39,090 nt of DNA from Catajapyx aquilonaris (taxonomy: Eukaryota): assembly GCA_000934665.2 (NCBI GenBank), contig JYFJ02000923.1:62001-101090 (forward strand). The letters run 5' to 3'. Shown here one piece after another: positions 3,023 to 37,200 of the stretch. A program made the position numbers and the translations under genes. The notes beneath the pieces were generated by a model that was not told where the DNA came from, made no database searches, and saw nothing but the letters and a program-made list of their open reading frames with translations. The number at the start of each line of letters is the position of its first letter. The stretch's first letter is position 1.

Positions 3023-4691
3023 TTAACCTATGAGTCCGAGTATCCCACGTCGTTCGTCTGTCTTACGTCGAATCCACCAGTAGTAGGTGGCCACTTTGGT
3101 GAACACGTCTGGGGAACGTCCGCAACTTTTCTTCAGCGAGAAGGACGCGATTCCAACTTGGTATATTTTGCGTCGGTCGTCGTACATCAATGGTCCGCCA
3201 CTATCGCCGTAGCAAATGGCAGCCTCTGGTGTGGAGTCGACGCACATCATGGAGCGACGTAGGTATCGCCGGTATACTTGCTTGCAGTCGTCGTAGTCCA
3301 TGACAGGTATCTTGGCTCGCATTAGCTGTTTGGAAGATGGGCCGTCGGTACGTATCCGACCCCATCCAGCGGCCTCCAGTTTTTGACCGTCCATCCTGAG
3401 ACGTCGGACTCGGCCATTAGGCAAGCACACTGGTGCAACGTGTGGGGACCAGTTCAACGTGTAGGTCAGCCTAAGCAAGGCCAAATCGCCATCCAGATTT
3501 TTGGGATTCCAGCGAGGATGTAGGATATATTTCTCGGCTTCTACTAGCATCTCAGTACCACGGATTTCGCCCCTGAGTATATATTAACAATAATTAATGA
3601 TATGATAAACAGTGGTTCGTAATGTGACGGACCTGTTGACACCACCAACAAACACGATAGCTTTATCAGCTCGTCGCAGGCAGTGCGCTGCTGTGAGGAT
3701 GTACTGCTTTGTAATGATACTTCCACTACATGACGTAGTTGAATCATCAGAACGATGTATCTCTATTTGCACTAGCCATGGATGACTGAAGTGTGAAACA
3801 GCTGACCCACCGACAATCTGGAAATACGGAATTTGTCAAATGTGCCGTTAATTGTCATAAGCAACACTTACTCTCGAATTTCTTCCACACCCGCCGGTTC
3901 CTCCTTTGATTTCGTTGAGGACCTGATAAGCGCAACGATGGGCCGTGTGTTGTCGACTTTGCAACCGGGACACTAACACCAGATTGTTTCCCAGGGACAC
4001 GGCTCGTAAGTGCTGCTGAGGACCACACCAGTAGTAGCTATTGGTGTTGAAGTTGGAGTCGCCAGTCAGGCTAGCCACAATGTAATCATCCAATTTGGTC
4101 GAACACGACTGAAAATGTAACACTAAAATCGGTATCTATACCATTGTGGATCACAATATACGAGGGTTGTTCAAGAAAACTTGAGCCAGATTTTTCCGCA
4201 GCTTGAGCAGGTATACGGCGAAATACTGCATAAGTATACTGGAGCTGGGGAAATTAATCGATCTTTCCGCCCGCTCAAGTGGAAAAACTACAGTATATGG
4301 TACATGGTACCCTCGTACAGTACAGTACAGTACACACCCTTTAAAAAAATCCTCTCAAGTATTTTCTTGAACCTCCTCAGCTTCAAGCAGCAGACGAAAA
4401 TTCGCATGCTTCAAAAAGGTGATCCTAGGCTATGGTATGGGGCGTATATATTGGCCACTAAAGTACCTTCATAGTCACGTTGTTGCATTGGACGTAAATC
4501 CGCTTTCCAGCAGGAGCGTGGAAGTAGAAAGCGCATTGAGAATTGGAGCCGTTGAAGCTAAAGGCGCCGCTGGTGCCATCAAACGTCTGAGAGCAGCTTC
4601 TTGCAGTATTAGCGGTAGCACCAGTGCTGGTCTGAATTTGGGCCGAAGGCACATTGGCCACTTTTCTAGCTTCCAGCATCAATCTTGAGCC
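3023..4691 (-). CDS. CUB domain + S1 (chymotrypsin-family) serine protease, 3' four exons
   Basis: Exons 4691-4467, 4108-3872, 3817-3633, 3572-3023, all GT-AG and in frame. CUB motifs: CSQTFDGTSGAFSF, CAFYFHAPAGKRIYVQC, YWCG..SLGNNL. Activation site R|IVGG; catalytic triad TAAHC, DLALL, GDSGGP. Confidence 0.92.
4161..4380. mobile_element. Degenerate mariner-like MITE in protease intron
   Basis: TA-CGAGGGTTGTTCAAGAAAACTTGAG at the left; imperfect inverted copy CTCAAGTATTTTCTTGAACCTCCTC at ~4352-4378. Confidence 0.35.
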
Positions 4692-6484
4692 CTGTCGCGC
4701 AATAACAAAAGGGCAATAGAACATTGTCAATTGAATTGCGCCGCTATTGATTATTATTAGTGTAAAATTTATAGGTGGCATTAGCATTGAAGCGGAAATT
4801 TATTAGCATGTTATCAGTATAACATGCCTACAATTTGTGAAATTAATTTCTTTTACCAGACACATTTTCACTTTCAACTGGCTGCATCAATCACATGACT
4901 CGTATAGTCCAGAGCATGGTCATGATGTGTCAAAAGGTTTTAACTGTATATAAAATTGCAAAATATAACTGTTTATGATTTCCTGGTATAATTTCTCATA
5001 CCTCCAGGCATTATCTACTCTTAATGCCTTTTGACTCTTATTCACTCAATCAGACGCTACAGTTAATACCCAGTGCCTCAAATTATCTCAGGATTATAGC
5101 CGCGTACAGCCACCAGGGTCGGATTGAACGATAGGCTTGATGTGAGGGTGAGTGTCATGGTTTTAGCTCACTTCAAGTAAAAATGTATTTTAATGTCTTT
5201 TGCCAAATTGCGGCAGAGCAGAAATACATAATGATAATATATACTTTCTTGATACTTTATCTGCTCGTTCCTTGCAGTAGAGACATATCCCTTCCTCCCT
5301 CCAGTCAATATTGTATCAAAATCCTCTTACATGAATGGCTGGGGGGAAGAAACAGACGGGGTGTCCACTACAATCTATACTGTATATGAGCATATTCTCT
5401 ATCATTATCGTTATTTAAAATAACAATGAGTGTGGAAGTTTACAACTCTAGTACATAATTATTTTGTGTAGGCGAGGTTGACTTCACTCACCTCCAAAAT
5501 GCATTTAAACACAGCAACCTACTGCTTAAGGTACCCACCAAAAAGTCGATTGTTAGTTATGGGATGCTACATGGTGCTACTATATTGATCTTGCCAAGCA
5601 TCTGCCGAGAAATCTGACTGAGAAATAATGAATTCAAACTCCAGCCCATGCATATACAACTGCTCGGGGGCCTTCTATGTAATTAATGACTCCATTTTAC
5701 AGGGTGTTTCAAGATATTGAACTATTCGTAGTTGTTGGTGAGACAGACTCCTTAGTAGTTACCTTCAGCGTCTAGGACAAATTAATTGCACGTACAGTAT
5801 TAGTTCCAATAAAAGCATCTAAGTGACCAGTGCAGTGTAAGTTATATGAAGTCTGCAAAAATGGCATTAACTTTTGATATTGGATGCTACTAGTTATTCT
5901 CACTATCACATATACGTAGGTTTACTACTTCAAAGACGTTTCCATTCTATTTGGAGAACCATTTTGACAGCCACTGAAATTAATCGATACATAAAATAAT
6001 TAATCATAAGCAGCCTAGTTACATGGAAAGTTTAGGTGGAACACTCGGCAAGAAATTCTGACATTTGTAGTTACGTGCAACACAGGCCATGTACTTGTAA
6101 AAGCAATCGAGTCTCAATTATTCGGACAAACCGGAGTCCAATCGGTGGTCCGGATAATCACTCGAAAATCCGGATAATGCGGAAATCTGGAGTGAAATAG
6201 GACTGGAGTAAAAAAAAATCGCATGCCACTATGAAAATGGAAGTGCAGTGTAAATTTAAAATGAGGTTATTAGCTGGAGAGTAGCCATGTATATATACCA
6301 ACGCCTGTCTTTGTGACTCACAAACAAAAGGCAAAAACACCTGTGGTACTGATACTGACGAAGAAAATTCGAAGCACACCTACGCAAGTAAATACGCAGC
6401 TCAGAGGCACCAACACAAGGCATTCAATAAATTAATAACAAAAACACTGCAATATCAGCCACAATTTACACACATTAAACTTAC

Positions 6485-7083
6485 GAATTTGATCGGCTTC
6501 CATTCCGGTTCTTCATCATAACGGACCTCATTATCCGCTTCGTAGTCATACCCTTTTTCTTCCACTTGAGGCTCCTTATCCAAATCTGGGTATGCCCAGG
6601 AATCCACCTCCGGTGTGGGCAATACTCCAGGCGCCGGATAAACCCCATTTCCTCCTAAAGGCACGCTTATCTCCCCCTGAATCAGTGTAAGAGACGGTGA
6701 GAGAGCATGGTTAGGGAGGGTTGTTGGGGGGGTGGGTTGAAGTGCGGGGTCAGCTTGATTTGATGGCTGACCAGAGCAGCCCCTTTAATCACCAGAGTGC
6801 AACGAGTGGGTGCCCTGGAGATGTGCGTCTGCACCGGATGAGTCCAGTGGGAGTCCCCGGCCGGCTGAAGACCCACCGGGGGGACATCAATATTCCAGGA
6901 GAGGGCAATCCCACCCGGATTTGATATCCACCCAGCCACCCCTTTTTATGAACGGACACATACCTCATCCAGTTCCGGATCCTCTTCTAGGACGTAATCC
7001 TCCTCTTCGGGGTCCAAGTCCACGTCTGGGAAGGCGTTGGCAATGGCCCCTAAGAACAACACTGTCCACCACACTTTCTTCAT
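6485..7083 (-). CDS. Probable first two coding exons (signal peptide + acidic pro-region) of the CUB serine protease
   Basis: Exon 7083-6964 MKKVWWTVLFLGAIANAFPDVDLDPEEEDYVLEEDPELDE|gtatgt; exon 6676-6485 ttcag|GEISVPLGG...EEPEWKPIKF|gtaagt. Both end in phase 0, matching the phase-0 acceptor at 4691. Joined model is 502 aa. Confidence 0.65.
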
Positions 7084-8984
7084 CTTTTTGTCGCCTGTGT
7101 GGGTTTGTCTGTGGTGGGCTGTCCTTTTAGCTCTTCTGTTGATTTGGTCTGTGGTAGGGTTGACAATGGAGGGATGAGCGACGCCCGCTTCCTAATTGCA
7201 CGGAGCATGTGGCAATTCAGCCACGTCTATTTCATTTCCATTCCGAATGGGGAAGCGGAACTGACTCGGGGTCCGTTTCACACAATGGGAGCACCTGGCT
7301 CAAGTGTTTCCTACTATGGATTTCCATACTGATTGTAATGCTGACTAGGAAGTTCGCTCTAAACCCCCTTTCTTCGAGAGGAATTTCCATGCCTGACGTG
7401 ACGTACTCGAGCACCTCTTAGATCACTTGCTCTGTTCATGTTCTGATTTGGGAGACGGGACATTACATTCACATTCCTGATCTGATCTCAAAATTGAAGG
7501 GAAAAAAACGTTCCAATGATGTGACAATACAGAGACAATCCCCAATGCTGTAAGAAGGTTGGTAATGTTCACATAATGTCCGGTTTTCCACGTGGGGATA
7601 TGTATTCTGGAGGACGGAGCATAAATCCACTATACATGACGACGCGACTTGGGAGGAAAAAACCTTACTTAACAGGAGTTAAATTATTCTCAATTAATAT
7701 TACAGTATGCTGAATTATTACCAGATCGAGACGTGCATCAATGGTTCAATATAACCAAATTAATGCCATAATAATGTGATCAATTATTATATTAAATTAG
7801 TCGCAATAATTTTGTTTAACCCAAATGGCTATTTAAAAGCTGGGCATACAGTATGTGCGTAGGTGTTGGTTGGGTGACCCAGCAGGTTGGAATTTGTGGT
7901 ATGACCTGATGCAGGATGTTTCTCTTCAGCACCAAGAGAATTATTGACGCGTCCAAAATTATTACGACGTCTCTCTTTTGTCTCATTATTATTGATAAAA
8001 TTATGATCTTGCGTAGCATATGCCGAACAGAGATTATTAATATAATCTAGGGTGGAGAAAGTATGTCAAACTTTATCTAATCATTACTTTCTATAATGAA
8101 ACACCTGTGACATCTCAACCTCACAATGCTGATAGTACTGTACATGCTGAAGGGTATATTGTGACCAAGCAGGTAATTTTTTCATTTATATTAAAATTGA
8201 AAAAGCTCATTTACTTGACAGAATTCCAGGATCGCAGATCTACTTCAAGAATGTTGTTCAAATGACCTTTCACACTAATTTCGTGATTATTCCACACTCC
8301 AGCATCCAACACACCATGCAGATAATAATGCGCTGTATGATTGGCAGGATATGTCTTTTCATGCACAGGGGTGACAAAACGAGGAAATTCAATATCTCAG
8401 TAGTTGCCAAAATAGTTTCATGATCACATTCAGAAGAACCTGGAAACACGGAAGGCTCTGATTTTCATTCCCACAGGAATAGGTATGTCTACAAGAAAGT
8501 CTCACCCTGACACACGGAACAGACTTAACACCTCTATATTTTATTACCAAACTCTTGTAACCATTTAATTATTTGGCAGCATCGTTATTTTATGGAACTA
8601 AAGCAGCACTGTTAACGAGGTGTTCGAATATTCCTGCCGACATCCGCAGTGTTGCCACATTGTGCCATCTGATAGAGGAGAATACTGTAACTTGAAACTT
8701 GTTTCTGAATGAGACTTTTCAACTACGATCTTATTGCGTCCTTACCTCGGAAATAGCAGAGAATGCGACTTGTGTCTGAATGTGACCTTTGAATATTGTA
8801 AAATAAACCTCAAGTCCAGGGGAAATGAGCAGCTTTTTCCACAACTTTGTACAATTATATGACAGACTCCCCAAAAGTTTATTTTAAAAACAATAACATA
8901 CCTGGGCAAGTGCACAATAATATTGTTAAATGTCACAAATGAAAGTTTTACAGGAAGCCCAGAAAAACCGATACACATACTCTT

Positions 8985-9296
8985 GTCTTGACTAAGGCGT
9001 GGGGACGGACATTGATCACTTTTCACTGCGAGTGTAAACTAACCTAACCTAACCTAACCTATCCTACCTAACCTACCCTACCCTAAGTAACCTAGGCTGA
9101 GAAAAATGGACTTTTGTGAAAACCTACAAATGAAAATAGTGGGGACATGTCCCCACTAATTGACACATGTCCCCACTGTAATGGTACACTTCGCGTGTGT
9201 GAGACTGTGGGGACCGACAAATGTCCCCACAATTGGAACTGGTCCCCACAGCTACAGTAAAACCACAGACTTCCGTCCCCAGACCTTAGTCAAGAC
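8985..9296. mobile_element. MITE with 25-bp TIRs, internal (TAACC)n and GTCCCCA repeats
   Basis: GTCTTGACTAAGGCGTGGGGACGGA (8985-9009) versus TCCGTCCCCAGACCTTAGTCAAGAC (9272-9296), 23/25 inverted match; several internal TGTCCCCAC/GTGGGGAC motifs. Confidence 0.75.
9040..9094. repeat. Interstitial arthropod telomere-type repeat (TTAGG)n on the minus strand
   Basis: Four perfect TAACC units (9040-9059) followed by degenerate units. Confidence 0.8.
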
Positions 9297-10714
9297 CTGA
9301 TCACTACCTTCAACTGCATACCACTGATATTTCTTACTTGACTCCACGTTTCAAAACGATCTTAATATTATTTTGTTAGAGGTACAGTACCGTCCAATAT
9401 TAATTAGTAATTACGCTCTAGATGTAGAATGGATTTTGAACTTAAGACTATTACTGATATCTCATTTTGTTATAAACACGTTACAATGTGACATTTGGCC
9501 AAGATCAGTCATAAAGTAATACGTATTTATACGTATTCAGATATTTCCAATGCAGTCTCGTGTGTGGTTAAAACATTTTCCAGACAACCAATGTCCAAGG
9601 TGATAGAAATATGTGAAAAAATCTATGCACTGGCAAACAGCAAATGTCAATGACATCTGTGGTTTTTCTGAAAAAAGTCTTCATTTAAAAAATAGCTCTA
9701 CCGTCCCAATGCATGTTACTTGGAGCATCAGATTCTAGTGAAAATATATATGAAAATGCCGAGTCGACATACAGCAGACATACAGAAAACCACAAGAGTA
9801 TCCTAAGAAGAGGACTTCTGGTTATTACACTGTGTGCATGGACTGATGGAAGAAAAAAAAGTTTCAGACAAGGTATGCCTGCAAAATGTCAATTTACTTC
9901 TCTTCCAGCTATTAGGCTACTAAAATCTTAGCCATCCCGCCATTAAGTGCAATGCACACATGTATATATTGTTTTAAATATTAAAAGCTACACTTAAGTT
10001 AAACTGGACGCTAATTTTGCACTACTATATATAGCATAAAAAACAGGTTCAGTGATGTTGATGCTGCAGAAGGTTGGCGAATAATCAGGTATACACGTTG
10101 TTGTATAATAACACATATATAACCACAAATATGCTGCAATGTTTCCTTAGGGATAATGACTAGCTAATCACAAGGAACCATGAGCAGTTGTACATTTCTA
10201 ATAGAATGTCCAACACTTCGAATTCTGTTTAAATTCCCATTCTAATGCATTCCTAGTGTCCATATTATGGGGTGTACAGTACATTTCCAGTCTAATATGG
10301 CAATTGAAACTGAAAGGCGTACCATATAATATGTTTCTTGGGAAGACTGTTCAATATAAAGAACAAGTTATCAATGTGGGGAGGACAGCTTAGAATAGTA
10401 GTAGGTACAGTACTGTACTATGTGACCAGCCACGCTTCCTAGTGGCTGAGAAACCAAATGATTAGTTCAGGCCCCCCATAGCAGATGGCAAACATGCCTC
10501 GGATCATGCCTCGGGTCTTGGCATTGCAGACAGTTACATCTCTGACTATTTCAAATTTGCATTGTTTTCACAGTAAATGACATGGAGTTTCCATAAAACT
10601 CAGGCTAAAAGTATGGCTTTTGAAATAATTAATGAGTAATGACACACCTAAAGCGCAAACATTTATTAAAACTCGATTATTAGGAATTACTGAAGGCAAA
10701 CAATTTTGTACTTT

Positions 10715-13700
10715 CTAAATCAGCTTCACCATTGTAAGATTAAGAACACTGGGAATTTCAATATCCTCTAAGCAGACACTGGATGGCTTGAATGGTAGTG
10801 TAACCGCAAGTGAAGCAAAGTTTACATTCTCAAACACCTGGAAAGAATTGGAAAGTGTCGCGATAAAATGTCAAGTCAGAAGCACAAATGCAGAAATGTT
10901 ACCTCGTCAGGCTGCTGAACTTCGTTCATTCTACTTTCCTGACGTTTCTGGCCCACCTTGGAAATGAAGGACGGGTTACAGTGCTCCTCGCCTGTATCAA
11001 TCGGAGTGTATAGGCTAAGCAACTTGATGACCTGGAATATGTCACTAATATTATGCTGCATCATTTGAGTGTATTGCTCACATACTTGAGCAGTTGACAA
11101 TTTATCACACATGTCGCATATGCTCTGGATATCGTCATCTGTCTTCCTGGCTTGAAGAAGTTGAGTGGCTTGAATCAGCGGCTGGAAAGTGTCCTCCATC
11201 TGTAAATCAGTAAATAAGTAAATAAAATAAAAACGCTCCTTTTCAAAAATAGCGCTACAACACAAATTGCATTATCACCTGAAAATGATAATCTTTGCAC
11301 CATTGCTCCAGAAGTGACAAGTTGTATCGGATTTGCATGCCATTTGACCAGTTACATAGATGCTGACTCTGAAGCAGTGCATTAAGTCCCCAGGCGCATA
11401 TGAAATGAATTATCTGTGGTAAGAGCAACAAAAAGGATTCAAACAAATTGTTATTACAACTTCTAACATATTGAGGGCATCTAAAAGTGTTCATGGCAAA
11501 AGATAATTTATATCCACTTTTGACACTTTCCAGACATGAGCAAAAAACATGCAGCTCAACAATTGAATTGAGAATTTCATTACTCCTAAATTTAAACAGT
11601 CAATACATCAACATTTTTTGAGAAAATCATCAGCATTATTCACTCTGATGCTCATTATCTCAACCAGATTAAGTATAAAACCCAAGATAAAACCAGAATT
11701 AAAACTTTGTTGAGATTTTTTTTGCCTCAACCTCTTCAGATAAATGATTAATGACATGCCAGTTGGCATTTATTAAAAAGTCCTCACATGCAGAATACGG
11801 AATTGTGTGTAAAATTACATTTCCTGAAAGAAATCTGACCTTTGCAGTTGTTAAACAGTAATAAAATAACTGCGCAAAGTACATGGGGGTATCAGCTTAT
11901 GCTGGTAACAGGTTGCGAGGTATCAGTAGGTAACCACAGTTGGTAATAAATGAGCAATCAGTGCCAACGAGGTACTGTAATGTAGTGACTAGCTGTAACC
12001 CCCTGAAATCTGGAAATGCTGGCAATTGGTGTGTACTTGTTATGAAATTGGCTAGTACCACATGATGTGCCAGCCAGTCATAAGTTTTCAAATAGCCAAA
12101 ACCACATTTTTTGTCTTGTCTGAGGCATGCTGTGTCCCTAAATCAAGTGAATTACAGGGTGTTTCTTACTGTAGTAGGTCAATCCAAAGTCAGCATATTC
12201 GTTAGGCCAAAACAAGTCTAAAAGGTAGGAGGGAGAAATGTCCAGGGATGTCCTTAACCCTGTAATGCCCCTTGGGTCATATCTGGCACACCATTTAGTG
12301 CAATTTGGCACTTACAGGAAATATAAAAATTGCAAAAGTTGCTAAAATTGCACTAAATGGTGTGCCAGATATGACCCAGTGGGCATTACTTAGATAAGTA
12401 GGCATTACAGGGTTAATGAGGTAGATGACCAGAAACATTGGACAGTGGTTGCCTGGGGAGAAGGATATGAGCGGTGATAATCACATCTGTGAAAGGGCGG
12501 GTGACGTCACAAATCTCTACAGTCACGATTATCACGCTCATATCCTGCTCCTTAGGTAACCACTGGCCAATGTTTCTGGTCATCTACCTCATTAATGGTT
12601 GATCCCTGGACATTTCTCACCACTACAGTTTCAGCTTGTTTTGGTCAAGGAATATGATGACTTCAGGTTGACCTACTAGTAAGAAACACCCTGTATATCA
12701 CAGTTTGAACAAACCTGTCTAAACATTTGAGGAATGAGTTCCGCATCTACACCGTGATTGTTAATCATTCTCCATAATGCTGTCAGCTGATCCATGAGGG
12801 TTTGAAAGGCTCCCATGGTATCATCATTAGAATCTTGGGGAAAAGAAGTGCGTGGTCTATGCCTCTTGAAAAGACGATGAGAATAACCATGTATGGCTTC
12901 CTGCTCCAAAATCGCTGGAGAAATCAAAGGTACCAGTAGCTTCTGCATCAGCTTTATGACCCTCTGCAAATGAAAGAAACCTTTAGCCAGTAATATATCA
13001 TCATGTCATCAGATTGTTCACATCTTACGTACATCAGAATTTAGGTCACAATCATATAAGTAAAAATTTATCCTGCATTAGGTATACTACTGTGCCTGAC
13101 TGTATATTCAAACACAGAGCAGGGAAGAGGCACATAAGCACCCCCCACATTTGCATCTCATCCCTTATTTTTCCAACATGAATTACGAGCGTCTGACATT
13201 TGCACCGATACAAATTTGAAATCAGTTCTGTAACACACGGTATAATGTTTCACCTGGAATATCCACACAGCAATAGTATTCAGCACTTGACGGTGTTCGG
13301 AAAGGTCAAAGGTAGTCAAGCACTGCTCATTTTGTCTGGGAGAATTCTGGGTTTGGAACACCTGTAATTAATCCGTATTTAACTTTTAGTCCTTGAACAT
13401 ACAGTGACTACTTTGAATGTGTCTGTACCTTGTCTCCACTGTACTGCTTCAAGGTGTGAAGTAGTCTTAAGGTGTTAGACAGCCACATAACGGTAGTCTC
13501 CAGGTCACTAGACTTTTTGATCACTTTCTTCAGTGCATTAATGACGTTTTCAATTAGAAAGGTAAGCTTGGATTCATCCTTCACATAATCATCGTGTCTA
13601 ATGCACATGAATATTACATAGGCTGGCAATCCTGGAGGAAGCATGACGGCTACTTCTGGATTCAAATCTGTGAAAAAAGTGATTATTTAGCTGTAATTGC

Positions 13701-16060
13701 AATTATTCTTAAGTCATTCTTAAGTAAATAATGAGCAATTATCAAATTTACACGCTATTTCATTTCCACACAGCCAGTTTTTCTTGGCAAATGGATGTAT
13801 AGGCTATATTTTAAGAGATATTTTATACATTGTCAGGCTGTGCCGACTAACAACAACATAAATACACATCAGAAATAAACACGTTTTAATATAAGAGAAC
13901 CCTGCAACACATTCATAGCACTTGTCATATCCTCCTGAGACCTGGTGTTGTCATATGTCGACATCAGCAAAAGATTTTTTTGGCGCCAACCAGTGATGCC
14001 AACAGAACTGTAATCTGTTGGTATCCCATGGTTACAATCTGGCCTCAATAGCTGTAGCCACCTAGCGTCGAATATCTGGCTTGGGCCGCGAAAATTAAAT
14101 CGCGGACAAAATGGCGGATTCCGCTGCTGAAGCTAGGCGCTCATCTGATCAGTTTTATTTTTTTTACTCATATTTAGAATGCGATTTTCGCAATGCAGTG
14201 AATGTCCTGGGATTCGCAAGGAATGTGTCTTAGGAACTGCGAAAAGATGATTCTGTGACAATCTTTGTTGCTGTAGAGAACTGGTCATTTTCTTTTCTTC
14301 CTGAGACCAAATGTCCATTTAAATGGACATCCGAAAAATGGCATTTTTAGCTGAATGGGTGTGACTTTTCTTTACGTGCCTGTACCTATACACCCATAAG
14401 GAAGTGGGCTTTTCACTATGCAGTTCAGTTTCAAAATCTAGAATAGCAAGGTACCACTTTAGCGGGTAAGAAGGGAAGGAGCAAGCCCCATGCCTGGAGT
14501 GGTGGCGTTAAAAATAATTTCATTTATCTCTAATTGTCTTCTGAGGGGAATTGCTACCACGAATACCACAAATGAATTTTAAAAACATTGTTTGGAGGAT
14601 AGAGCACTATGTGAGTGATCCATTAAGTGGTATTTCAATTTTCAGCTTTCATCCGTTCTGCTTTTGTAGCACCAATTGGGTCCTAATGTTCTCATTGGTT
14701 GTTTGTCGCCATTTTTGTCGATATTTTAAAACTAAAATTTTTTTCTCGTTTCTTATTGGGAACATGTTCAGAAAATGCAATAGGAACTGACATTGCGTTA
14801 AAAAATTCGTCTCACGTCTCAGGAGGATATAACTACCAATATCACAAAACCATAGCCAATGCAGCAAGGGGTTAACCACTCGACTGTAAAGTGTATACAC
14901 TGGAGTACCAAATTCTAAGGAGTGCCAAGGAGTACCAAAGAGTAAGGTACCTAAGGAGTACAGTACCTGGGACTACCGATATGCAGCACCAAGAAGCAAT
15001 ACACCCCTGTCAATATAACAACAACTACAGTGTAAACTGCAAAACATTAGGCTACAAGAGCATCAGTGAAGCATCAATTTTTAATGCTCTTCTAATGCTG
15101 TTGTGCTTTTAGGAACATAAAAGCATCACAAGAGCATTAGAGGAGCATTAGAAGAGTATTAAAAATTGATGCTCAATGGGAGACTCGCCAGTGGTGTTCT
15201 TTTCATGATTTGCAAATTACAATGTACTATCGGATACAAATAGTTTTGGCCACTTTATCCTGATCTTGAAGCAACCCTTCGCTCAGACCCCACGTTCAAT
15301 AGATGAGGGTGTGTGACGGGTTCCTTCAAGGCCAGGATAAAGTGGCCAAAACTATTTGAACCCGATAGTACGCAACAGTTACGTAGTCACCAACAACACT
15401 AACCTTACACCACAAAACATTAGCATAATAAGCAACTTCACAAAAATTAACACCTGCATAATTTAATTACGAATCGTGTACATCATCATCATCATCAAAA
15501 AACTTCACCATTCATAAAAAATAATAAAGCCCATAAACCATCTGTCACAACTATTAAACAAAATTGCAACAACACAACTGGAAAACCCCATTCAAATATA
15601 TATCATTGATTCATTAGTGACTTGCATTTATATTATGTATAATTATATACATTATATTTATATTGTATATTCAGTTTTTCGACATTGACATTTGGTGGGC
15701 GATTGTAAATCCGCAATGTTTAGGAACAGGGACGATCTATTTTAAAATCTCTGAATGACCAATGCCGTACAGTTTCAGTAATATCCCGCAGACTATGCAT
15801 AGCGTCCATCCTTTCCCTTGTGACTTGACATATATGCCTCGTTATGCATATTGTAACAGGTTTATCAGTTTTAAAAGGACTATAAGATATATGAAGTTGT
15901 ATCCAGAAGCATTGGCAGCAGAAACCGTACCACGTTACACCAGCAACAACAGAATTGATTCACTCACCATATATTAAATTGTGAATCAAAAGCATCACGT
16001 TTTGCTTGCTGACCTTCAGCATTCCCATGTGTGATTTTTTTCCCTGCGTTGTCTGGAATT
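10715..16060 (-). CDS. MYO5: Myosin V globular tail / Dilute (DIL) cargo-binding domain, divergent myosin V (didum/MYO5)-like, 8 exons
   Basis: Exons 16060-15968, 13667-13429, 13361-13254, 12963-12715, 11413-11279, 11199-11086, 11031-10903, 10837-10715; all GT-AG, one continuous frame (1190 nt). Motifs: GML..LIHNLI, PGLPAYVIFMCIRH, WLSNTLRLLHTLKQYSGDK, QNEQCL..FDLSEHRQVL, GMQIRYNLS.LEQW, PLIQATQLLQARKTDDD, LYTP, PFKPSSVCLEDIEIPSVLNL. Confidence 0.93.
12155..12693. mobile_element. Fold-back Tc1/mariner-type MITE (TA TSD) in a myosin intron
   Basis: TA|CAGGGTGTTTCTTACT...AGTAAGAAACACCCTG|TA; the arms are imperfectly complementary along nearly the whole element. Confidence 0.85.
12258..12412. 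mobile_element. piggyBac-type MITE nested in the previous MITE
   Basis: TTAA|CCCTGTAATGCC...GGCATTACAGGG|TTAA; internal inverted repeat GGGTCATATCTGGCACACCATTTAGTGCAATTT. Confidence 0.85.
13931..14826. mobile_element. Non-autonomous DNA transposon with CCTCCTGAGAC termini and ATAT flanks
   Basis: ATAT|CCTCCTGAGAC...GTCTCAGGAGG|ATAT; internal end-like copy at ~14300-14330 (CCTGAGACCAAATGTCCATTTAAATGGACAT); same termini as the palindrome at 27831-27890. Confidence 0.7.
15070..15173. repeat. Short imperfect inverted repeat (MITE-like)
   Basis: AGCATCAATTTTTAATGCTCTTCTAATGCT versus AGCATTAGAAGAGTATTAAAAATTGATGCT. Confidence 0.7.
15225..15370. mobile_element. Palindromic Tc1-like MITE
   Basis: TACTATCGGATACAAATAGTTTTGGCCACTTTATCCTG...CAGGATAAAGTGGCCAAAACTATTTGAACCCGATAGTA; ~50-bp arms. 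Confidence 0.75.
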
Positions 16061-17823
16061 CTGAAATGCATGGACTGTATAGTCTACACTCTACACTATC
16101 GTGCCAGCCACAAGGCTGTATTTGCTGCAAAAGATAATATGCACAAAAGTACCTGCATTCATTTCTATCTTGATAATATCAGTTGCATTAAATGTCATAT
16201 TCTCATTTTTCCTAGGCGGTACGGGGCTGGCTACCAAGCGATCATAGTTGCCAGAAGATTTCACTAAGGTATGATAAAATTAAGTATTATTAGTACAGTG
16301 GTTATGCAGATAACAAAGAATATTTATATCCTTGTTTTCCCATTGATACATAGCTAACCGGCAAAGTAGGTTACTGCAAGTCTATTGCAGTAGGCCTAAT
16401 GCTGTTGTAGTACAGTATTAGCAATGGATCCACCACCGTTGTGTGCTCCCATTTCAAGGGTTCTGTGGCAATAGCCATCATACTGAGAGACTGACCGATC
16501 TGTTTCACTTGATTAACACACCAACCCATCAAGTAGTATTCCATTTTGTGTGTTGTAGAATGTGAGAATGAGTCAAGCCAAAATAATTATTGTATAGCCG
16601 TCTTGTGATCCATGGAGTTCCAAGTATCGTATTGGGATCATTTTAGTTAAATCGCAAATTTCAGTCGAAGTTAGTTGTAATTTTTTGTGTAGCTTTTTGC
16701 ATTCCGATCAGTTCCGATCCAGGTGCCCTATTATTCTCAGGTGGTCGAATATAGCAACTGATAGATAATTGGGCACCTCAATCGACGTGCAAAAATGCTG
16801 CACAAAAGAACCTTGATAAAAACTTCAAGATTTCCCGTAACTAAAAAAAAACCACCCCCCACATATTTCGAACACACTGTATGTGGGTCAATATTTGCTA
16901 AAGGGTCAAACAACAGCCAAACTGATGAGTATGGTAATGAATGTAGTTTTCCAACCATAATTGAAGGGCCCCATGGGAGAAGGGGGTAACTAACATTTTG
17001 GCAATTTTTGAGTTAGGCACGTTGAAGAAGGGGCTGCAGCATCGGATACACTTCCATATGCCCATTTGGATCACTTTCTGGTCCCTCACTTATACGACAA
17101 TTTTAATACATAATATGTATATAATCATCACATTGAAATAAGTCGTGCATATTTGAACACATGGCCCTGGAATGTCGGTGATACCGCAATGTAATGATCA
17201 AGGGTAATGATAATGACCCATCTGTTGCAATAATGGCAATTCTATAGGGGCGCAGCTTTCTTAAAACTATAGCAGTTTGCAAGTGTGTAAAATCATAAAT
17301 GTAGTAATTTTATTCCCTTATTGGGAAGGTGTGTGCTTACAACCTTAAACAAAAAGTAATGTTGTAATACACGCAAAAATTTAATTGGTCCCTACCGTAG
17401 TGACATAAAAATTCTACAAAATTTATCATGGAATATCGCTACATTACAGTGCATTTAAAACATTGAGAATGAAGAAAATAAATTATGATTGTAAATTAAC
17501 TTCATTACCATATTCAATTTGGCCTTTTCGCTTAACTGTTCATCAGCTTGGTTCCAAAAAATATATACCAATTGCGAACACTTTAGCTGGAACACTTGGT
17601 GGTACTGTACAATACACTACAAAAATTGGCACAGCCGCAGCCGTACAGTGCGTAGTACAAGTACATACGTGCCCTCAGTTCGTAGTATGCATTAATGCAC
17701 ATGGATTACTGGAGCCAGTAATCCGGACACATTTTACCCTTCCCCAATGATGGTGTCAACTTAGGATACGTATACTACAGTAGGCCTACCACCATAATAA
17801 TTGTCTTCTCCAGATGAACTCAC

Positions 17824-17953
17824 CATTGGTAAGGGTGACTGTAGATCGTTGAGAGTCGAAAGCTTGTAGGATGCCTTCGAATCGTATTTTGGACATATTG
17901 CATACTACTACGACCTTGCTTCCAATCCAGCACTGGGGAATCCCACTGTTCAT
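17824..17953 (-). CDS. LSM14: LSM14/Scd6/Trailer hitch-like N-terminal Lsm-domain exon (divergent, apparently isolated)
   Basis: MNSGIPQCWIGSKVVVVCNMSKIRFEGILQAFDSQRSTVTLTN(G)|gtgag aligns with the LSM14 start ([40 protein letters not shown]); phase-1 donor; no clear second LSM14 exon found. Confidence 0.7.
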
Positions 17954-18639
17954 TTGGGATGAATTCTCGACTGACTTACTCGGAAGCACTGCCAATACGA
18001 ACTGATATCAGTTAGAGCTAGGAATGGGTGCAGTTCCTAGTCAAATAGGTCACTCTGCATTCTCATTCTTTTCATACCCTTTTACATTTTACAAAACTGT
18101 CTTTATCGTCAAATTCCACTTTACAAAATGTGAGCGGAATATTTTATGCTACTACTGGCGAGTGCACCTAGTCCTTAGTTGCAAGTTACGTGAATGCGAC
18201 AACAGCATCCTGAGAGCAGCCAGTCATCAGATTATAATGTAAACCTTCGTAATCAATTAACACCCACCAATACGCGACAGGATAAGATGAAACGATGCTA
18301 TTCGAATCCGTCCACAAAATCCGCCAAATCTTCAGGCAGGGGATTGGCTCGATGGTAATTAACTCCGCCAGGTTGAACGTTTAGGATCGATTGCAGATAT
18401 ATAACCTAAAACCTGGGTTTGGAATATTGGGAAAAACTAGGACAGCGGCTTTTGCCATTAATCTGCCCGTAGGTATAGGCCCATCATCCCTAAGGGATGA
18501 AAGACGCACCTAAAGTGACCTCCTCAAAATGACCCTGTGATCCTTTTTTTGAGGGGGGCAGAGCCTCCTCAATGTTAATTTTTTAGACCGACGAAAGTTT
18601 TTTTGAAAACTGTCAGACAGTGTCGTCTTATTTTATGTT

Positions 18640-22733: not shown

Positions 22734-23656
22734 CGAGGGGTGTTATATAAGTTCGTGGTTTCGCCTAGAAGGAGAAGCAAATGCGGAAGTTAAACATCGC
22801 CATTAAATCGAGCCACCCTTCAAACCCCTATATCCACCCAATTGACATAGGTGTCAAAGTCCTTGGGTTCAGAAATAATTCGGATGTGAAAGGGTACGCA
22901 GCATTTTGTGAAGATGGCGAACATCGCACATCGCGCGGTCATCCAGTACCTGGTGGCAAAGGGAATGGGTGCCAAGGACATCTTTGAGGACATGAAGGAT
23001 ACATTGGCTGGCGATGCACCATCCTACAGCATGATCCAGAAGTGGATTGCCCTCTTCAAACACGGCCGAGACAGCCTAGAAGACGACCCCCGCTCCGGAA
23101 GACCTGTGTGTTCCACCACTGAAGAAAATGTGGCCGAAGTGGAGGAACTAGTGATGGGAGACCGAAGACTGACTATCAGGTACCTTGCTGAGGTGGTGGG
23201 CATCTCAACATTTTCCATCCACACCATACTACATGACCACCTGCGCCTGTGGAAGGTGTCAACACGATGGGTACCCCGAATGTTGTCGCCAGAACAGAAG
23301 GCGGCGCGTCGGGAGATTTCACAATATTAAATTTGGACCAGCTGAATGCTGATGCAGAAGGATTTTACGCTCCTCTGGTCACACAGGATGAAACCTGGGT
23401 ACCTCTACCTGTTCCCGAACATGAAGAAACACCTGCGGGGTCGACTCCATGGGAGTGACGAAGAGGTCAAGGCAGCTGTGGAGGACGTCTTGGGGGGGTG
23501 AGATTCTTCCTTCTACCAGAACGGTTTGGAGAAGTTGCCACGAAGATGGACAAAGTGTATTGACCGGTGTGGGTACTATGTTGAGAAATAAAATTGTTTC
23601 TTTGTCATGTCTCGCGTATGTCTACTTGAAACCACGAACTTATATAACACCCCTCG
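22734..23656 (+). mobile_element. Internally deleted mariner element (irritans-like), 923 bp
   Basis: Perfect 29-bp TIRs CGAGGGGTGTTATATAAGTTCGTGGTTTC with TA TSD. Transposase N-terminus from ATG 22914 (LEDDPRSGRP, WVPRML), then TQDETWV, then a jump to YLFPNMKKHLRG...RWTKCIDRCGYYVEK; the HDNA/YSPDLAP core is missing. Confidence 0.95.
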
Positions 23657-31273: not shown

Positions 31274-34200
31274 ATGGCATACTCATCAGTTCGTGAGCAG
31301 CAGGCCAGAGTAGCAGCAGAGAGTCTTCTTAATAAGAGTGGGCACAGTGATGTGGAGTGTTCTTTGAGGAGCAATCTGGGTGCCATGGGTGAACCTCTTT
31401 TGTCTCCTGCTTCTGGTAATAAGATAACTACAACCATATCAGTGTCTAGTATTGTGTCTTACTGGAGGGTGTTAATAAACTTTACCACCCAATGTGGTGG
31501 GGGCAGGAGGTCCAGGAAGAGCAACCTCAGTAAATGAAACATTTGTCTTGTATTTGTTTATTTGGGTGTCAGAAGGCATTCGAGGCACTGGAACAGTGCC
31601 TGTTGCTGCCATGCCAGCAGCAGGGCATTGGTCTGAGAGGGTGTCTACAATAATATTCTGAAAATTAAGCAGGTTAGCTGGTAAGGAAGTTTCTTGCATG
31701 AGCTTTTCCGGTGTCTTTGATGCCCTCTCGTACCTGAAAGAGGCACCGAAGGCCATATTTTACCCTTACTTGGGACCTCTATACCCCCCTGTGAAATGAG
31801 TGGTAAAATTCATATAAACACCCTGTATAAGTTATGTGTATAGTAGCACCTTTTACGCTATTTCTGGCATAGCATTGTGTAGACTGCATTGCACCATCAT
31901 GTGTTTTGCTTGAAACAGGGGGGTTACTCTTGTAGTGGGGCGGGTAAGCTAACCTATTGTGCATTTTTTGATAAAAGCACCTTTGTGCAGAGGTAATTCA
32001 ACCTATTATGAACAAATTTGGATATTGGGCCATCGCGTATGTGCCCCCTGGCGGCCGCCACTGTTCCGTAAACAGGGACTTATAGTCGAAGCGGTACACA
32101 AAATTATGCTGCAAAATCTTGCAGAAAGCAAGCCACTTTGCACAGACGTTCCATAGACCAAGACGATCAATTTGACCTGCAGCACCCTTACCCCTGACCT
32201 TATGGGGTCAAATGGAGGCCATTTTTGAAAAAACGGTCATATATTTTTTTGTAAATTCCAAATTGCCTCTCCATGGCAATGTTGGTGTCATTTCCGCATA
32301 TTTCGAGGTCGACAAGTCGATGGGTAACGTGCAGGAGGTCATAAGGTCACTAGTTGGTGACCTATGACCTCCGTTTTGAAATTACCCTGCTGGGCTATGT
32401 CTGATGGTATATTTGCGACTAAAAGGTGGCATGTGAGGTATCGTTTAGATATAATTTGATGTCACTGAAACCGAAAACGACAATAAAAACTCGGAATCAT
32501 GCATCCGGTGACCTGTGGGGCGCCATATTGGGTTTCAACTTAAACCCTTTGGTGGGGATATGCACCCGTAAGTGAATAGTAGACGTGTTTGGTATCCTTG
32601 CAGCATATTTCGAGGTCGACAAGTCGATTGGTAACATGCAGGAGGTCAGTGGGAGGAGCAGGTCAGTGGGAGGAGCAGGAGGAGTTTGTGACCTATGGCT
32701 GCCATTTTGAAATTATCTTATCGGAAAATGTCTAAAGGTATTTGCATATGATGTGTGGCTTGTGAGGTGTCGATAACATTTTAAAAAAATTATTGTACCC
32801 CGTGATGACCCTTACGGGTTCTATAGGGGGGTGGTACGCCACCATTTTTCCTCAATTTTCTAAGTTAAATCACTCCGGTGCAGGGAAACAAGGACATGGG
32901 AAAGGATTGGGATTTTTGGGGAGGGAACATGGGTGCAAGTGCATTGTCTGAAAAGGGGTCATGTGCTGTTCCCCAGGAGGTTAGGTTGCCAGACACCTCC
33001 TTGGTGCAGGTCAGAGACCCTCCTGACGCAGACGAAAGGTAACTCCCAGGCGGGGAGCGAACCTGGGACCTTTCACTCAGCAAGCCGAGACGTTATCATC
33101 TCGGCCACCACACCTCCCCTGTCGATTACATATAATTTGCTGTCACTGAAACCAAAAATGGCATTAAAAATCTCGAATCATGCTTTTTGAGACCAGACAA
33201 GCACCATATTGGATTTCAACTGAAGCCCTTAGGTGGGGATATGCACCCGTAAGAGAATAGTACACGTGCTTGGTGTCTTTACCATGTTCCTTGCGATCGG
33301 TTTTTGGGAAGTTACTGAGTTTTTGTGCTTTCTTTCACATTGGTAACAGCTAGAAAAAACCGCTTTGTACCCACACAAGCCGCACAAAGCGGCCAAGCAA
33401 GCAGGTGCAGCTGGAAGGGTGCATGAATTGACTTGCGCATGCTTTCACCTTCACCTGCGCATGGCTGCTTGCAGTTTTTCCCAGGAGGATGCTTATTTAC
33501 TTGCCCAGAAGTGTAGTTTTTTTCATATTGTAGTCAAGTGCCTTGATGTTGAGCAATGTATTTGCTAATATAATTATTTATTTCAAAATAGTGCCTCCAT
33601 GTTACAATGCCATCAACAATCCTGACATCATAACAGAAGATCTGGTGGTGGGAATGAGGCAAAATGGACGCATTTCTCCAGTGCGGCGTTTTTTCTGCCT
33701 GCTTGTTACATTTGATCTCTTGTTCACAACTCTTCTTTGGCTTATTCTTGTGATGGTGAGTACTTTTTATTATCTGCATGTCGATATCAGATATGCTTCT
33801 CTATAATTTTTCATTTTAGTGTTTCTGTGAAGTGCTCACTTATGAGGTTCAATCAATGTATTCTCAGCCTGACATAGATGGGGTTGACATATAAGGACGT
33901 GTTGTCAGTAAATTGTAGTGGGACTCTCTAGAACATCACTCACAAAGTTTCATTGCAATTGCATAATTCCAATGGGAGTTATTGATCCCTGAAGGCATGA
34001 AAGTGTGGGGTCTTCTGACGATGGAGAAGATCAAGGCTCGTGCAGTATCAAATTCCTTCACAGGAAGGGGATGGGCCTTTATGGACATTTATGAAGAAAT
34101 GTACACAGAGTGGGTTATGATGCTCCATGCTACAATATAGTCAAAAAGTGGGCATAGGAGTTCAAGGTGAGTCAGCAGAGCTTGGAAGATGACCCCCGCC

Positions 34201-37200
34201 CAGGCGCCCCAGAAACAGTCAACACTCAGGAGAATGTGGATCATTTTCATGATATGGTGATTGATGACCATCAACTCACCATCAACCAATGATAGCCACA
34301 GCGATGGGCATATCACGCAGTAGTGTGCATTCCATCCTGACACTAACATTGGGGATGCACAAGCTGGCAGCCTGATGGGTACCCAGAAACTTGACACCTG
34401 ATCAGAAGGCCCATGTCCGGGAATCATTGGAGGTGTATCAGTGGTATCTGGATGCTTTCTTGGGTCGCTATGATACATGAGATGAAACGTCGCTTCGCCA
34501 ACATTGCCCAGAAACAAAACAGCAGAGTAAGGAGTTGTTTCATATCAGATCCCCACCCTGTAAAAAGTTCTGTGTCATCCCATCAGCAGGGAAGGTGATG
34601 GATTCCATTTTTTGGGGCTGTGAAGGGCCTCTGCTGGTGGACGTTCTGGAACATGGGCACACAGTGACAGGAGACTACTATGCCAACCTCCTCCACTGAC
34701 TACGCGATGCTATAAAAAAGAAGAGATGTGGAAAGCTGAACCGAGGTGTGCTGCTCCATCAGGACAATGCTCCAGTCCACACCTCACGTTCCATTGGTTT
34801 CTGCTGACAATTGTGGCTTCAAACTGCTCCTCCATCCCCAGGATTTCCCAGATTTGGCTCCCTCTGACTGTCACCTGTTCCCAAAAATGAAGGAAAGTGC
34901 GTGGAATTCGTTTTGCCAATGACAGTGAGGTGGTCAGTGCCATGCATGAGTGGTTGGGTGGGGGTGTGAAAAGAATTTTACTTGCAGGGAATCCCGAGTT
35001 TGGAGCACAGATGAGAGACACTAAAAACTAAAATGTGTCTTTTAGTGGTGTTAGGAGGGACTATGTTGGGAAGTCACAATAAATTGGTGACCATGAAAAT
35101 AATCTTTCTGTTCAAGGTCGAGAATACATTGACTGACCCTCGTATGTGACTATCTTTTAGCCCACCATTCTGAAGTATTACCTTTGCCAGCCTTTTATAA
35201 TGCAAGTTGGGACACTTTCTGAGCTTCCTGCTTTTGGAAAAAGGTGCTGTAGCCCATATTGGCAGTAAAATAACAAGAAACAGAAGCATCTTCATATGTT
35301 GATGGGCATTAATGTTTGCATTAAGGAGATGATGATGTCTTGAAAAAATGGTATGATTCGTCTGTGGCATAGAAGGTTAATGAATTTACTTGGTGTATGG
35401 TGTAGCCAAGGTATGACATTTTGTGATGTGGTACAGTCCCGCACATAAAGAATGGTTATCCTGATTATCGAGTATTATTCCCAACCTTAATTCAACAAAA
35501 CCCTATTGACAACCATTTCTGGACCTCCGGTGACTCGTATGACCTATCCCGATTTTTAAATAAAAATTTTAATGACCAAACTGTTCAACCCGGTGCAATG
35601 CTTACGTAGATTTGATGTGAATTTCCCCCCTAAAATTTTCCTACTTAGCTGTGTTTTTCTCTTCTCTTTTTTATTTTTATTTTGAGTCCCTTTTCCCGGA
35701 CTTCCTCGTGACCCCTAAAAACATGCTGGCGACCCAGGGGTTGGGAACAGAATAAACATTTCGTCCACATAGAGTCGTGCCATTCTTTATGAACGGTAGG
35801 CCCTACTGTACACTTACACTTTGGGGGTATTACAAGTGCATGTAAACAGTTTTTATGGTGGGTGGCATTTACACCATGTCAGTAGCCTTCATAGCTAACA
35901 AAAAAGCAAACATTATCATGACATTTCCCCAAAAACGTGGTAGTGAGTGATGAAGAAGACATGTCAAATTACAGAGCTAGCCTTAAAAGCATATACATAT
36001 AGCTTAATACATGCATAGCAGGTCTGGAATCATATCCTATAAATGCAAGTGGAGTATGTGTGTCTTGTCACTTGTAGCATTAGGCTAAAATATTGCAGTT
36101 TCCGATCTACTAGTAGTGGCATAAATTATGCTGAGAAATTTTTGCTGACCTCTGGTTTTATTCTCCTCCAGGAAAAAATTGCTCACACAATGCTGCTGAC
36201 CTTGCCTTTCCAATTCTCTGATCCTGTAAAAGCTGTAGCTATGAGAATGTGGAATAAGGTGTAGTGTCTTTCATTGAGATGCATTAGACTGTTGCAGCTG
36301 GATGAGTAACCCTTCTCAACTTGATCACACTAAAGACTATGATAGCAGAATTGTGGAATGTAGGACCTCCCACAAAAACCTTGTCATCTCCTCACCACAA
36401 TGCAATGGGGGGTCTGTAGTTTTAAATAGGATTTCATGACAATAGCTATATATGTGCCAGTGTTGGATTTGTGTGGATTCTGCACCAATTTGTGAGTTTT
36501 CGAGGGCATTTGCAACAGCTGAAAATGGATTGGATTCGCTTGCTGGGTGCTAAAGATCTGGAGAGGCACAAAATAATACAAAACCATGAGTTTGACCACA
36601 TTTTGATAAGACTAGGTGGGCAAGAATCAGTACAAAATTTTCATTCCTTAATATAGTTTTTCTTATTTGCATCAGCCAGGATGTATGTAAAACATTAAAT
36701 TGACGCCCCTCACTGCTTGATTGAATGTGTAGAAATATTTACATTATTATTGAAGAATATATTCCAAGTCGATTTAGAATAAAGGAAATTGAGAGTCAAG
36801 GCCTCCAGGCAAGTCAGTTCATGTGCGACTGATTGAATGCCCCGATTGGCTAGTCTGGCATGCATGGGAGCTCTCCATATGAGTTGTGTGCACAGTGCAA
36901 GTGTAGCTTCATAAATCGGTTCATTGATACGTGTCCATGGATTCTGTAATTTTTTTAAATGCATTGTTGCTTGAACTCACCTCCTAATGATCATTGCGGG
37001 TCAGATTGGGATGTAAGCTTGTCACATGGAAAAACAACAATTCCTGGAGTTCAGCAGCTTCTTTTCAAGGTGATTGAATTTTATTTAGAAAGAGTTGTAT
37101 AACTCACTGAGCTACACTTGTAGGTGAATGGACGGGGAAAAGTGAAAATATGAGCATCTTTGAGACATCCGCAAATACAGTCATTATGAGCTAAATTTAG

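Follow-up and report, generated by a model that had tools for sequence, protein, structure and literature searches.

Class V myosins and LSM14/4E-T/DDX6 complexes are both central to the localisation and storage of mRNPs, and they are normally linked through separate adaptor proteins. In LSM14 itself, binding of DDX6 depends on the FDF and TFG motifs. DIL-domain proteins without a motor include afadin and RADIL, in which the partner domains are RA, FHA and PDZ, and the headless derivatives of plant myosin XI carry a tail module of the myosin V/XI type without a motor; to our knowledge, none of these proteins has an Sm domain. A headless tail product close in length to the protein predicted here (488 aa) is annotated in a decapod (P0016, "unconventional myosin-Va-like isoform X2"), and it too begins with some 100 residues that are not myosin; its N-terminus, however, is a low-complexity alternative first exon of a canonical gene and not an Sm domain, and its tail is canonical, being placed next to the full-length Palaemon protein in our tree, with very short branches.

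An LSM14-like Sm domain acting as an N-terminal docking module before an unrelated C-terminal domain is found in EDC3, as described in PMC8984151. EDC3 differs from the gene considered here in retaining the FDF motif and a C-terminal YjeF-N domain, and the first exon of our gene matches the Sm domains of EDC3 with E = 1.1-1.3 versus 5e-4 for LSM14A. A limited literature search returned no published description of an LSM14 protein with a dilute/DIL domain, and we could not find the architecture of an LSM14-type Sm domain joined to a globular tail described for either the LSM14 or the myosin V (MyoV) family.

We analysed a stretch of 39,090 nucleotides of contig JYFJ02000923.1 of Catajapyx aquilonaris (hereafter the window), in which a chimeric gene model of 10 exons occupies positions 17953-10715 of the minus strand. 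The exons and the intron that separates the LSM14-derived from the myosin-derived part are as follows.

e1: 17953-17824, minus strand; ATG and first half of the LSM14-type Sm domain, 43 codons plus 1 base, donor GTGAGT, phase 1
e2: 16263-16153, minus strand; 111 nt, phase 1-1, encoding the second half of the domain; acceptor ...ccttag, donor GTACTT
Fusion-junction intron: 16152-16061, minus strand; 92 nt, GT-AG
e3: 16060-15968, minus strand; linker and start of the globular tail
e4: 13667-13429, minus strand; globular tail
e5: 13361-13254, minus strand; globular tail
e6: 12963-12715, minus strand; globular tail including the variable loop
e7: 11413-11279, minus strand; DIL domain, first part
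e8: 11199-11086, minus strand; DIL domain, second part
e9: 11031-10903, minus strand; globular tail, H11-H12 loop region, strongly diverged
e10: 10837-10715, minus strand; C-terminal end of the tail and TAG stop codon

The preliminary description of this locus had joined e1 directly to e3-e10, and its coordinates, strand, phases and open reading frame (1320 nt, 439 aa, with zero internal stops) were reproduced on recomputing. It had also taken the LSM14-like exon e1 for the nearest recognisable same-strand coding exon and had cautioned that no more than an initial portion of the Lsm fold is present; both statements have to be revised, since e2, an in-phase exon of the same strand, is nearer, only 92 nt separating it from e3 further downstream, and supplies the second half of the fold according to local alignment, a profile and controls. 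With e2 included, the frame stays open over 1431 nt (476 aa), all nine introns of the full e1-e10 path are GT-AG, and the junction intron falls in the size class of the other short introns of the gene (54, 65, 67 and 79 nt). The proposed 17824->16060 junction keeps an open frame if spliced directly, but it is probably not the one mainly used, the likelier path being 17824->16263 followed by 16153->16060.

The predicted 476-aa protein would consist of a complete Sm domain (e1 and e2, approximately residues 1-80), a linker of about 11 residues and a complete globular tail with its DIL domain (e3-e10), without motor, IQ or coiled coil and without the FDF, TFG and RGG parts of LSM14; because these last regions are missing, DDX6 binding would be lost.

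With the LSM14/RAP55/Trailer hitch/Scd6/CAR-1 family, the gene shares an N-terminal Scd6-like Sm domain, the same start methionine and the division of the domain between two exons. Scored alone, e1 matches the Pfam LSM14 profile PF12701 over positions 2-35 of 75 (31.8 bits, cut-off 30 bits), the PDB chains of LSM14A (6f9w_A, E 5.3e-4; 2fb7_A, E 9.7e-4) and, more weakly, that of Tral (2vxe_A, E 0.081), and the ESM Atlas clusters nearest to it are LSM14 (score 0.92). A full HMMER search with e1 gave five matches at E<=0.001, of which P0129 and P0130 are of the LSM14 type; one is a bacterial DUF5666 repeat protein, and P0127 and P0128 resemble translated repeat-spacer arrays and were treated as chance. 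In the alignment with P0129 (18/41 identical, 44%, E 1e-9), the ATG of e1 coincides with the MSGGIP start of LSM14 itself.

The second exon is poorly recognisable by itself and, searched alone, has no match in Pfam, PDB (phmmer), BLASTP or the ESM Atlas. Its local alignment to copy 2 of the domain in P0129 nevertheless scores 49, a value reached by 0/2000 shuffles, and that to copy 1 scores 30 (71/2000 shuffles), while no alignment was obtained with the two copies of P0130. Against a home-made LSM14 profile, for which just two proteins supplied the four domain copies, e1+e2 scores 52.8 bits over positions 9-82 of 92, compared with 33.0 bits for e1 alone and 32.2 bits when e2 is skipped, so that e2 adds about 20 bits; none of 1000 shuffled and none of 988 random stop-free controls reached 52.8 bits. 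Relative to LSM14, e1 has gained 2 residues and beta-4 has lost 2, in both cases in frame. The shortened beta-4 stretch of e2 is also less hydrophobic than its counterpart in P0129, and these changes may impair the Sm fold. The frame of e2 continues for 20 further codons past the donor before a stop. This extension has no LSM14 similarity, its scores being matched by 346 and 831 of 2000 shuffles, and we therefore rejected reading e2 through its donor as a continuation of LSM14. The family differences lie in the much greater divergence of the chimeric Sm domain (44% to P0129), in the lack of an FDF match and in the continuation of the frame into myosin tail exons.

The resemblance to class V myosin (Myo5a, Drosophila didum) extends along the whole globular tail, to which e3-e10 align, and the chimeric tail matches the solved tails of Myo5a/5b/5c and of yeast Myo2, with e4, e7 and e8 matching those of Myo5a. 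Exon e3, which carries two in-frame ATGs, aligns to ...KKERDYMGMFEY...LIY of arthropod MyoVa but is short on its 5' side relative to canonical MyoV sequences, and the open frame upstream of its acceptor has no MyoV similarity. The e3/e4 boundary coincides with breaks in the database fragments P0006, P0007, P0011 and P0033, and the positions of the e3/e4 and e5/e6 introns agree with those implied by arthropod MyoVa fragments. Among the inner exons, e4 matches 160 MyoVa proteins with E<=0.001, at up to 69% identity, and the PDB Myo5a tails at E 5.9e-25, e5 is 57-68% identical to 9 MyoVa proteins in tblastn, and e6 is 32-42% identical to MyoVa in the same kind of search. Both e7 and e8 exceed the cut-off of the Pfam DIL profile PF01843 (53.8 and 35.0 bits, cut-off 24 bits) and match PDB Myo5a (E 1.4e-8 and 3.5e-9, respectively). 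Exon e9 is linked to e8 by tblastn and has no PDB match at E<=0.01, and e10 is 50-70% identical to the last 23-37 residues of MyoVa in tblastn.

The tail departs from the canonical pattern. Of the 135 columns conserved in at least 97% of 95 canonical tails, 104 are kept and 31 are broken, whereas the canonical tails themselves break at most 14 of about 140 (median 0); the median identity of the chimeric tail to these 95 tails is 46.5%, and that among them is about 57-64%. By this measure, the tail would be unusual in a working MyoV. The broken columns take in the H11-H12 loop and include R326S and K334N, at residues that are conserved in human Myo5a, as well as D/E406T, F/Y407G, R410H, V411C and P412N. 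According to PMC4454200, the basic and acidic head-binding residues of subdomain 2 of mouse Myo5a are K1706, K1779, E1789 and E1791, and R326S, K334N and the breaks at 406-412 lie around them. With the numbering transferred through chain 7yv9_A by an inferred offset of 25 residues, the equivalents of K1779 and E1791 are kept as K396 and E408, the position of K1706 is Q (arthropods also vary there, with N/S/K), the neighbouring R, invariant in 95/95 canonical tails, is S, and the equivalent of E1789, which is D/E in 95/95, is T. Part of this divergence could be that of the lineage, because the tail tree is only midpoint-rooted, without an outgroup, and the placement of the chimeric tail in it is not interpretable.

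The remainder of the window was searched for parts of either parent gene. No Pfam match to Myosin_head, IQ, FDF (PF09532) or other LSM14 regions was found among 256 ORFs of at least 55 aa on both strands of the window, nor any match to these among 82 minus-strand ORFs of 22-54 aa at 3836-10720, downstream of the tail, and no coiled-coil or motor match in tblastn searches of the window with 9 and 10 MyoVa queries (best chance-level E 0.22). Rfam and tRNA scans of the window gave no matches, and a weak zf-ANAPC11 match at 9127-9285 (E 0.0028, below the cut-off, without a Met) was unconvincing. An exon encoding a MENTAL domain (STARD3-like) lies at 33534-33803 on the strand opposite to the chimeric gene, mariner remnants are present upstream of e3, and the window contains a single N at position 20711, 2.7 kb outside the gene. 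Two candidate flanking signals were noted.

Candidate core promoter: 18005-17972, minus strand; Inr-like TCAGTT (A+1 at 18003) with DPE-like RGWYV at +28..+32 (17976-17972)
AATAAA polyadenylation-type signal: 10667-10662, minus strand; 47 nt after the stop codon

The Inr+DPE-like motif, 50 nt ahead of the ATG, is one of two such composites on both strands of the window, where 0.77 are expected and 17/100 shuffles reach two; the consensus, that of Drosophila core-promoter work, gives a short match here and serves as a lead only. AATAAA is a common hexamer, occurring 59 times in the window, and is weak evidence at this position.

In a word-indexed protein search, e1 gave 5 candidates and e6 gave 6, none of which scored, and the metagenome scans gave 236 pattern matches for the e1 ORF and 222 for e6, none of them confirmed; these protein and metagenome searches thus found neither an orthologue nor a second example of an Sm domain joined to a tail.

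These data can be explained in several ways. We consider it quite unlikely that e3-e10 are the end of a full-length myosin V gene with its motor, IQ and coiled-coil exons beyond the window, at a distance of more than 21 kb upstream. The LSM14-derived exons would then lie within its long intron, where they would be inert or would provide an alternative internal pair of first exons for a short isoform made beside the full-length motor. The window reaches only 21 kb upstream of e1, the e3/e4 and e5/e6 intron positions are those of arthropod MyoVa, and the decapod P0016 provides an annotated precedent for a headless isoform made from an alternative first exon; however, motor, IQ and coiled-coil similarity is absent across the 39 kb, the opposite-strand MENTAL exon and the mariner remnants would fall inside the supposed intron, and nothing MyoV-like precedes the acceptor of the short e3. 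The 31 broken columns are more than twice the number in the worst of the 95 canonical tails, and some of them fall at sites kept from human to arthropods, close to the head-binding residues given in PMC4454200. A chance landing of the LSM14-derived exons 92 nt from e3, in the same orientation and phase, would also be unlikely. An artefact of assembly, in which a canonical LSM14 5' end was joined to a MyoV 3' end, is highly improbable: the one N in the window is well outside the gene, the junction falls within a clean, in-phase GT-AG intron, and neither part is canonical, with the tail being atypical and e1 only 44% identical to P0129, which by eye is much closer to human LSM14A.

Also unlikely is a non-functional or split relic, that is, an LSM14 fragment and a tail duplicate that are adjacent without forming one protein, whether as a pseudogene or as an Lsm-only product reading into the 92-nt intron together with a tail-only product started from the Met codons of e3. 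The weak recognisability of e2, its open frame beyond the donor, the two ATGs in e3 and the failure to find an orthologue would fit such a relic, but the ten exons are open and 9/9 introns remain GT-AG despite about 50% divergence from both parent families, where neutral decay would be expected to leave many stops and frameshifts. Moreover, 104 of the 135 conserved tail columns are kept, the indels relative to LSM14 are in frame, and the e2 read-through lacks LSM14 similarity.

Overall, we favour a real Lsm-GTD fusion gene encoding a motor-less adaptor or decoy, with a probability of roughly 0.6. The structure argues for a chimera of an LSM14 start with a headless myosin V tail more strongly than the preliminary description did, which leaves that proposal partly supported. 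The sequence shows the exon structure, the phases, the domain homologies and the absence of the other parental domains from the window; transcription, splicing path, origin and function of the gene are our inferences. Both halves show only in-frame differences despite about 44-53% identity to the parent families; that they are so far diverged from canonical LSM14 and MyoVa and yet keep open frames suggests that the chimeric gene is an old, maintained paralogue.

A plausible origin for the fusion gene would be that the two 5'-most exons of an LSM14 gene and the eight 3'-most exons of a MyoV gene were duplicated at the DNA level and came together within what is today a 92-nt intron, with long divergence under coding constraint afterwards. 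Lacking a motor and probably monomeric, the product would act as an adaptor or decoy with two modules. Its Sm module could dock on the partners of the LSM14 Sm domain, 4E-T/Cup and DCP1, and its globular tail on the cargo receptors of MyoV, and repressed mRNPs would then be tethered to MyoV cargo sites, or LSM14 and MyoV would face competition from the protein for their binding partners. Tentatively, then, an old and selectively maintained Sm-tail protein might act as a motor-free tether of RNPs to cargo sites, linking the 4E-T/DCP1 side to MyoV receptors, or as a dual decoy. Such a decoy might, with the same reserve, adjust P-body assembly as well as the loading of cargo onto MyoV, and the architecture would be one undescribed for either family.

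If the gene is not expressed, it would be one more decaying duplicate of limited interest. If the fusion is real, the hard-wiring of an LSM14 docking module to a MyoV cargo-binding module would serve as a natural experiment, showing which interactions of each module work alone and how exon shuffling yields a new adaptor, and it would offer a case in which to see whether, after loss of the motor, the tail surface that binds the head degenerates.

The minus strand of the window carries ten exons, e1-e10, that together would form a gene for an LSM14-type Sm domain followed by a myosin V globular tail.

Exons of the predicted Sm-tail gene, each fixed from the sequence
17953-17824 (-): e1, Sm-domain exon
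16263-16153 (-): e2, Sm-domain exon
16060-15968 (-): e3, tail exon
13667-13429 (-): e4, tail exon
13361-13254 (-): e5, tail exon
12963-12715 (-): e6, tail exon
11413-11279 (-): e7, tail exon
11199-11086 (-): e8, tail exon
11031-10903 (-): e9, tail exon
10837-10715 (-): e10, tail exon

All nine introns of this model have GT-AG borders, and their lengths from e1 to e10, computed from the exon coordinates, are 1560, 92, 2300, 67, 290, 1301, 79, 54, and 65 nt. The path through e2 gives an ORF of 1431 nt (476 aa) with no internal stop. The preliminary description had proposed direct splicing of e1 to e3, and that path is open as claimed (1320 nt, 439 aa, no internal stops); its observation of an LSM14 start joined to a myosin V tail is borne out as a whole and is extended here. 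Nested inverted repeats resembling MITE-type insertions occupy 12207-12644 in intron 6 and 15224-15371 in intron 3, with arms of 43-62 nt that are 81-92% complementary across both.

Exon e1 matches the Pfam LSM14 profile with 31.8 bits (cut-off 30 bits) over positions 2-35 of 75. Among solved structures, it matches the Sm domains of LSM14A (6f9w_A, E 5.3e-4; 2fb7_A, E 9.7e-4) and Drosophila Tral (2vxe_A, E 0.081), whereas the match with EDC3 Sm domains is weaker than that with LSM14A (E 1.1-1.3 only). Alignment with P0129, a database protein with two LSM14 domains, gives 18 identical residues of 41 (E 1e-9) and places the ATG of e1 at the family's own start, and in the ESM Atlas e1 falls with LSM14 clusters (score 0.92). 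Two further proteins, P0127 and P0128, were treated as chance matches inflated by repetition: the former matches e1 via the eight-residue stretch NMSKIRFE, from which the latter differs by one residue, and both consist of three recurring 15-residue motifs and variable stretches, like one DNA repeat in three frames (a repeat-spacer array).

The 111-nt exon e2 (phase 1-1) lies 92 nt from e3 on its upstream side. Its translation, both split codons included, aligns with the second Sm half of P0129 copy 2 with a score of 49, reached by none of 2000 shuffles, and with copy 1 with a score of 30, reached by 71 of 2000; no alignment was obtained with the two copies of P0130, another LSM14-type protein, and e2 by itself finds nothing in Pfam, the PDB, the BLASTP search, or the ESM Atlas. 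Against an LSM14 profile built from the four domain copies of P0129 and P0130, e1+e2+e3 reaches 52.8 bits (positions 9-82 of 92), compared with 33.0 for e1 alone, 32.2 for the path skipping e2, and 7.7 for e2 alone. None of 1000 shuffled-e2 constructs attained 52.8 bits, nor did any of 988 random stop-free window segments (maximum 40.7); these remained of 1000 drawn after removal of 12 overlapping e1 or e2, four of which beat the real score, all four being copies of e1. The beta-4 stretch of e2 differs from P0129 in being two residues shorter and less hydrophobic. From these comparisons we conclude that e2 derives from LSM14 and that the predicted gene encodes a whole but diverged Sm domain; therefore the earlier caveat that only the first part of the Lsm fold is encoded falls, as e2, absent from that description, supplies the second half.

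Pfam DIL matches e7 (53.8 bits) and e8 (35.0 bits), and the protein search with e4 gave 160 of 206 candidates at E<=0.001; those of the 120 listed e4 matches that have names are myosin Va or dilute-domain proteins from arthropods (top identity 69%), and none of these 120 carries the LSM14 domain (PF12701). Solved Myo5a tails match e4 (E 5.9e-25), e7 (1.4e-8), and e8 (3.5e-9), with no match for e9 at E<=0.01. In tblastn, nine MyoVa queries matched only within e4-e10, and e3, aligned by eye, resembles the segment immediately preceding the tail in fetched arthropod proteins. Database fragments pass into non-coding sequence at the e3/e4 and e5/e6 boundaries, so the tail comes from genomic DNA rather than from a retrocopy.

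We consider a real fusion gene the best reading of this sequence, with a probability of about 0.6. The LSM14 and myosin parts join at a 92-nt GT-AG intron, on a common strand and in a common phase, and this intron fits the size class of the gene's other short introns. It is improbable that the tail exons belong to a larger MyoV gene. Canonical MyoVa does continue upstream, whereas e3 begins about 11 codons ahead of the conserved MGM motif, and the open frame upstream of its acceptor contains nothing MyoV-like. None of the window's 256 stop-to-stop ORFs of at least 55 aa matches Myosin_head, IQ, or FDF (the DDX6-binding part of LSM14), nor does any of 82 smaller minus-strand ORFs from the stop codon to the next gene. 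With the 375 residues that precede the tail in 10 MyoVa proteins as queries, tblastn at permissive settings gave chance-level matches only (best E 0.22). Mariner remnants and a MENTAL-domain exon on the opposite strand lie within the 21 kb upstream. A random fragment dropped into a large intron, moreover, would rarely produce such an arrangement of strand, phase, and 92-nt spacing. An assembly artefact is very improbable.

An unexpressed or split relic is unlikely, even with the divergence of the locus. Against 95 canonical pancrustacean tails, the tail of this locus shows 44-53% identity (median 46.5%), compared with medians of about 57-64% among those tails; it retains 104 of 135 columns conserved at >=97%, and its 31 violations stand against at most 14 of about 140 (median 0) when each canonical tail is left out in turn and scored. 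On a tree with a midpoint root only, it has the longest branch and falls outside the insects and decapods sampled. Similarly, P0129 is far closer by eye to human LSM14A than e1 is to P0129 (44% identity), and the differences from LSM14 are in frame throughout. Since ten exons are open and the splice sites intact at such divergence, we infer coding constraint. A candidate promoter of the Inr-plus-DPE pattern (Drosophila consensus; two in the window on both strands, 0.77 expected) has A+1 at 18003, with the ATG 50 nt downstream, and AATAAA, a hexamer common in the window, lies 47 nt past the stop codon.

The changes in the tail include R326S and K334N, at positions invariant in 95 of 95 canonical tails and shared by human Myo5a, and D/E406T, F/Y407G, R410H, V411C, and P412N in the H11-H12 loop. 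Passages of PMC4454200 describe K1706, K1779, E1789, and E1791 as required for head binding or inhibition, with subdomain 1 binding melanophilin and subdomain 2 the head. On a mapping inferred through a 25-residue offset to chain 7yv9_A, the equivalents of K1779 and E1791 are retained but that of E1789 is not, and residues around K1706 have changed, a pattern suggestive of release from docking on the motor head.

In its short GT-AG introns, its mariner remnants, and the presence of a trypsin-like gene, the window resembles animal genomic DNA. The trypsin-like gene (3026-3835, -; Pfam Trypsin 128.5 + 47.4 bits in two adjacent frames; AAHC and GDSGGP motifs both present) looks intact, because its in-frame stop at 3584-3586 sits within a GT-AG intron some 60 nt long. 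The mariner-type transposase remnants lie at 22890-23327 (+) and 34481-34696 (+) (HTH_48/HTH_32; Transposase_1 45.7 bits), and the exon at 33534-33803 (+), about 15.6 kb upstream of e1, matches the beginning of a MENTAL (cholesterol-capturing) domain like that of STARD3/STARD3NL (PF10457, 39.6 bits). A zf-ANAPC11/zf-rbx1 match at 9127-9285 (-) is sub-threshold (E 0.0028/0.019), in a 53-aa frame without Met, and probably due to chance.

Because the predicted protein consists of the Sm domain and tail alone, it would act as a monomeric two-module adaptor or decoy, with 4E-T/DCP1-type proteins and MyoV cargo receptors as possible partners; DDX6 binding, coiled-coil dimerisation, and movement on actin would be lost. 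Headless myosin tails and chimeric genes are kinds already known. Protein and metagenome searches returned no orthologue or second Sm-tail architecture, and in a limited literature collection no paper mentions either 'dilute domain' or 'DIL domain' alongside LSM14. The decapod 'unconventional myosin-Va-like isoform X2' (P0016, 488 aa), annotated as a headless tail isoform, differs in having a low-complexity alternative N-terminus; it illustrates that other arthropods, too, have predicted tail-only MyoV products.
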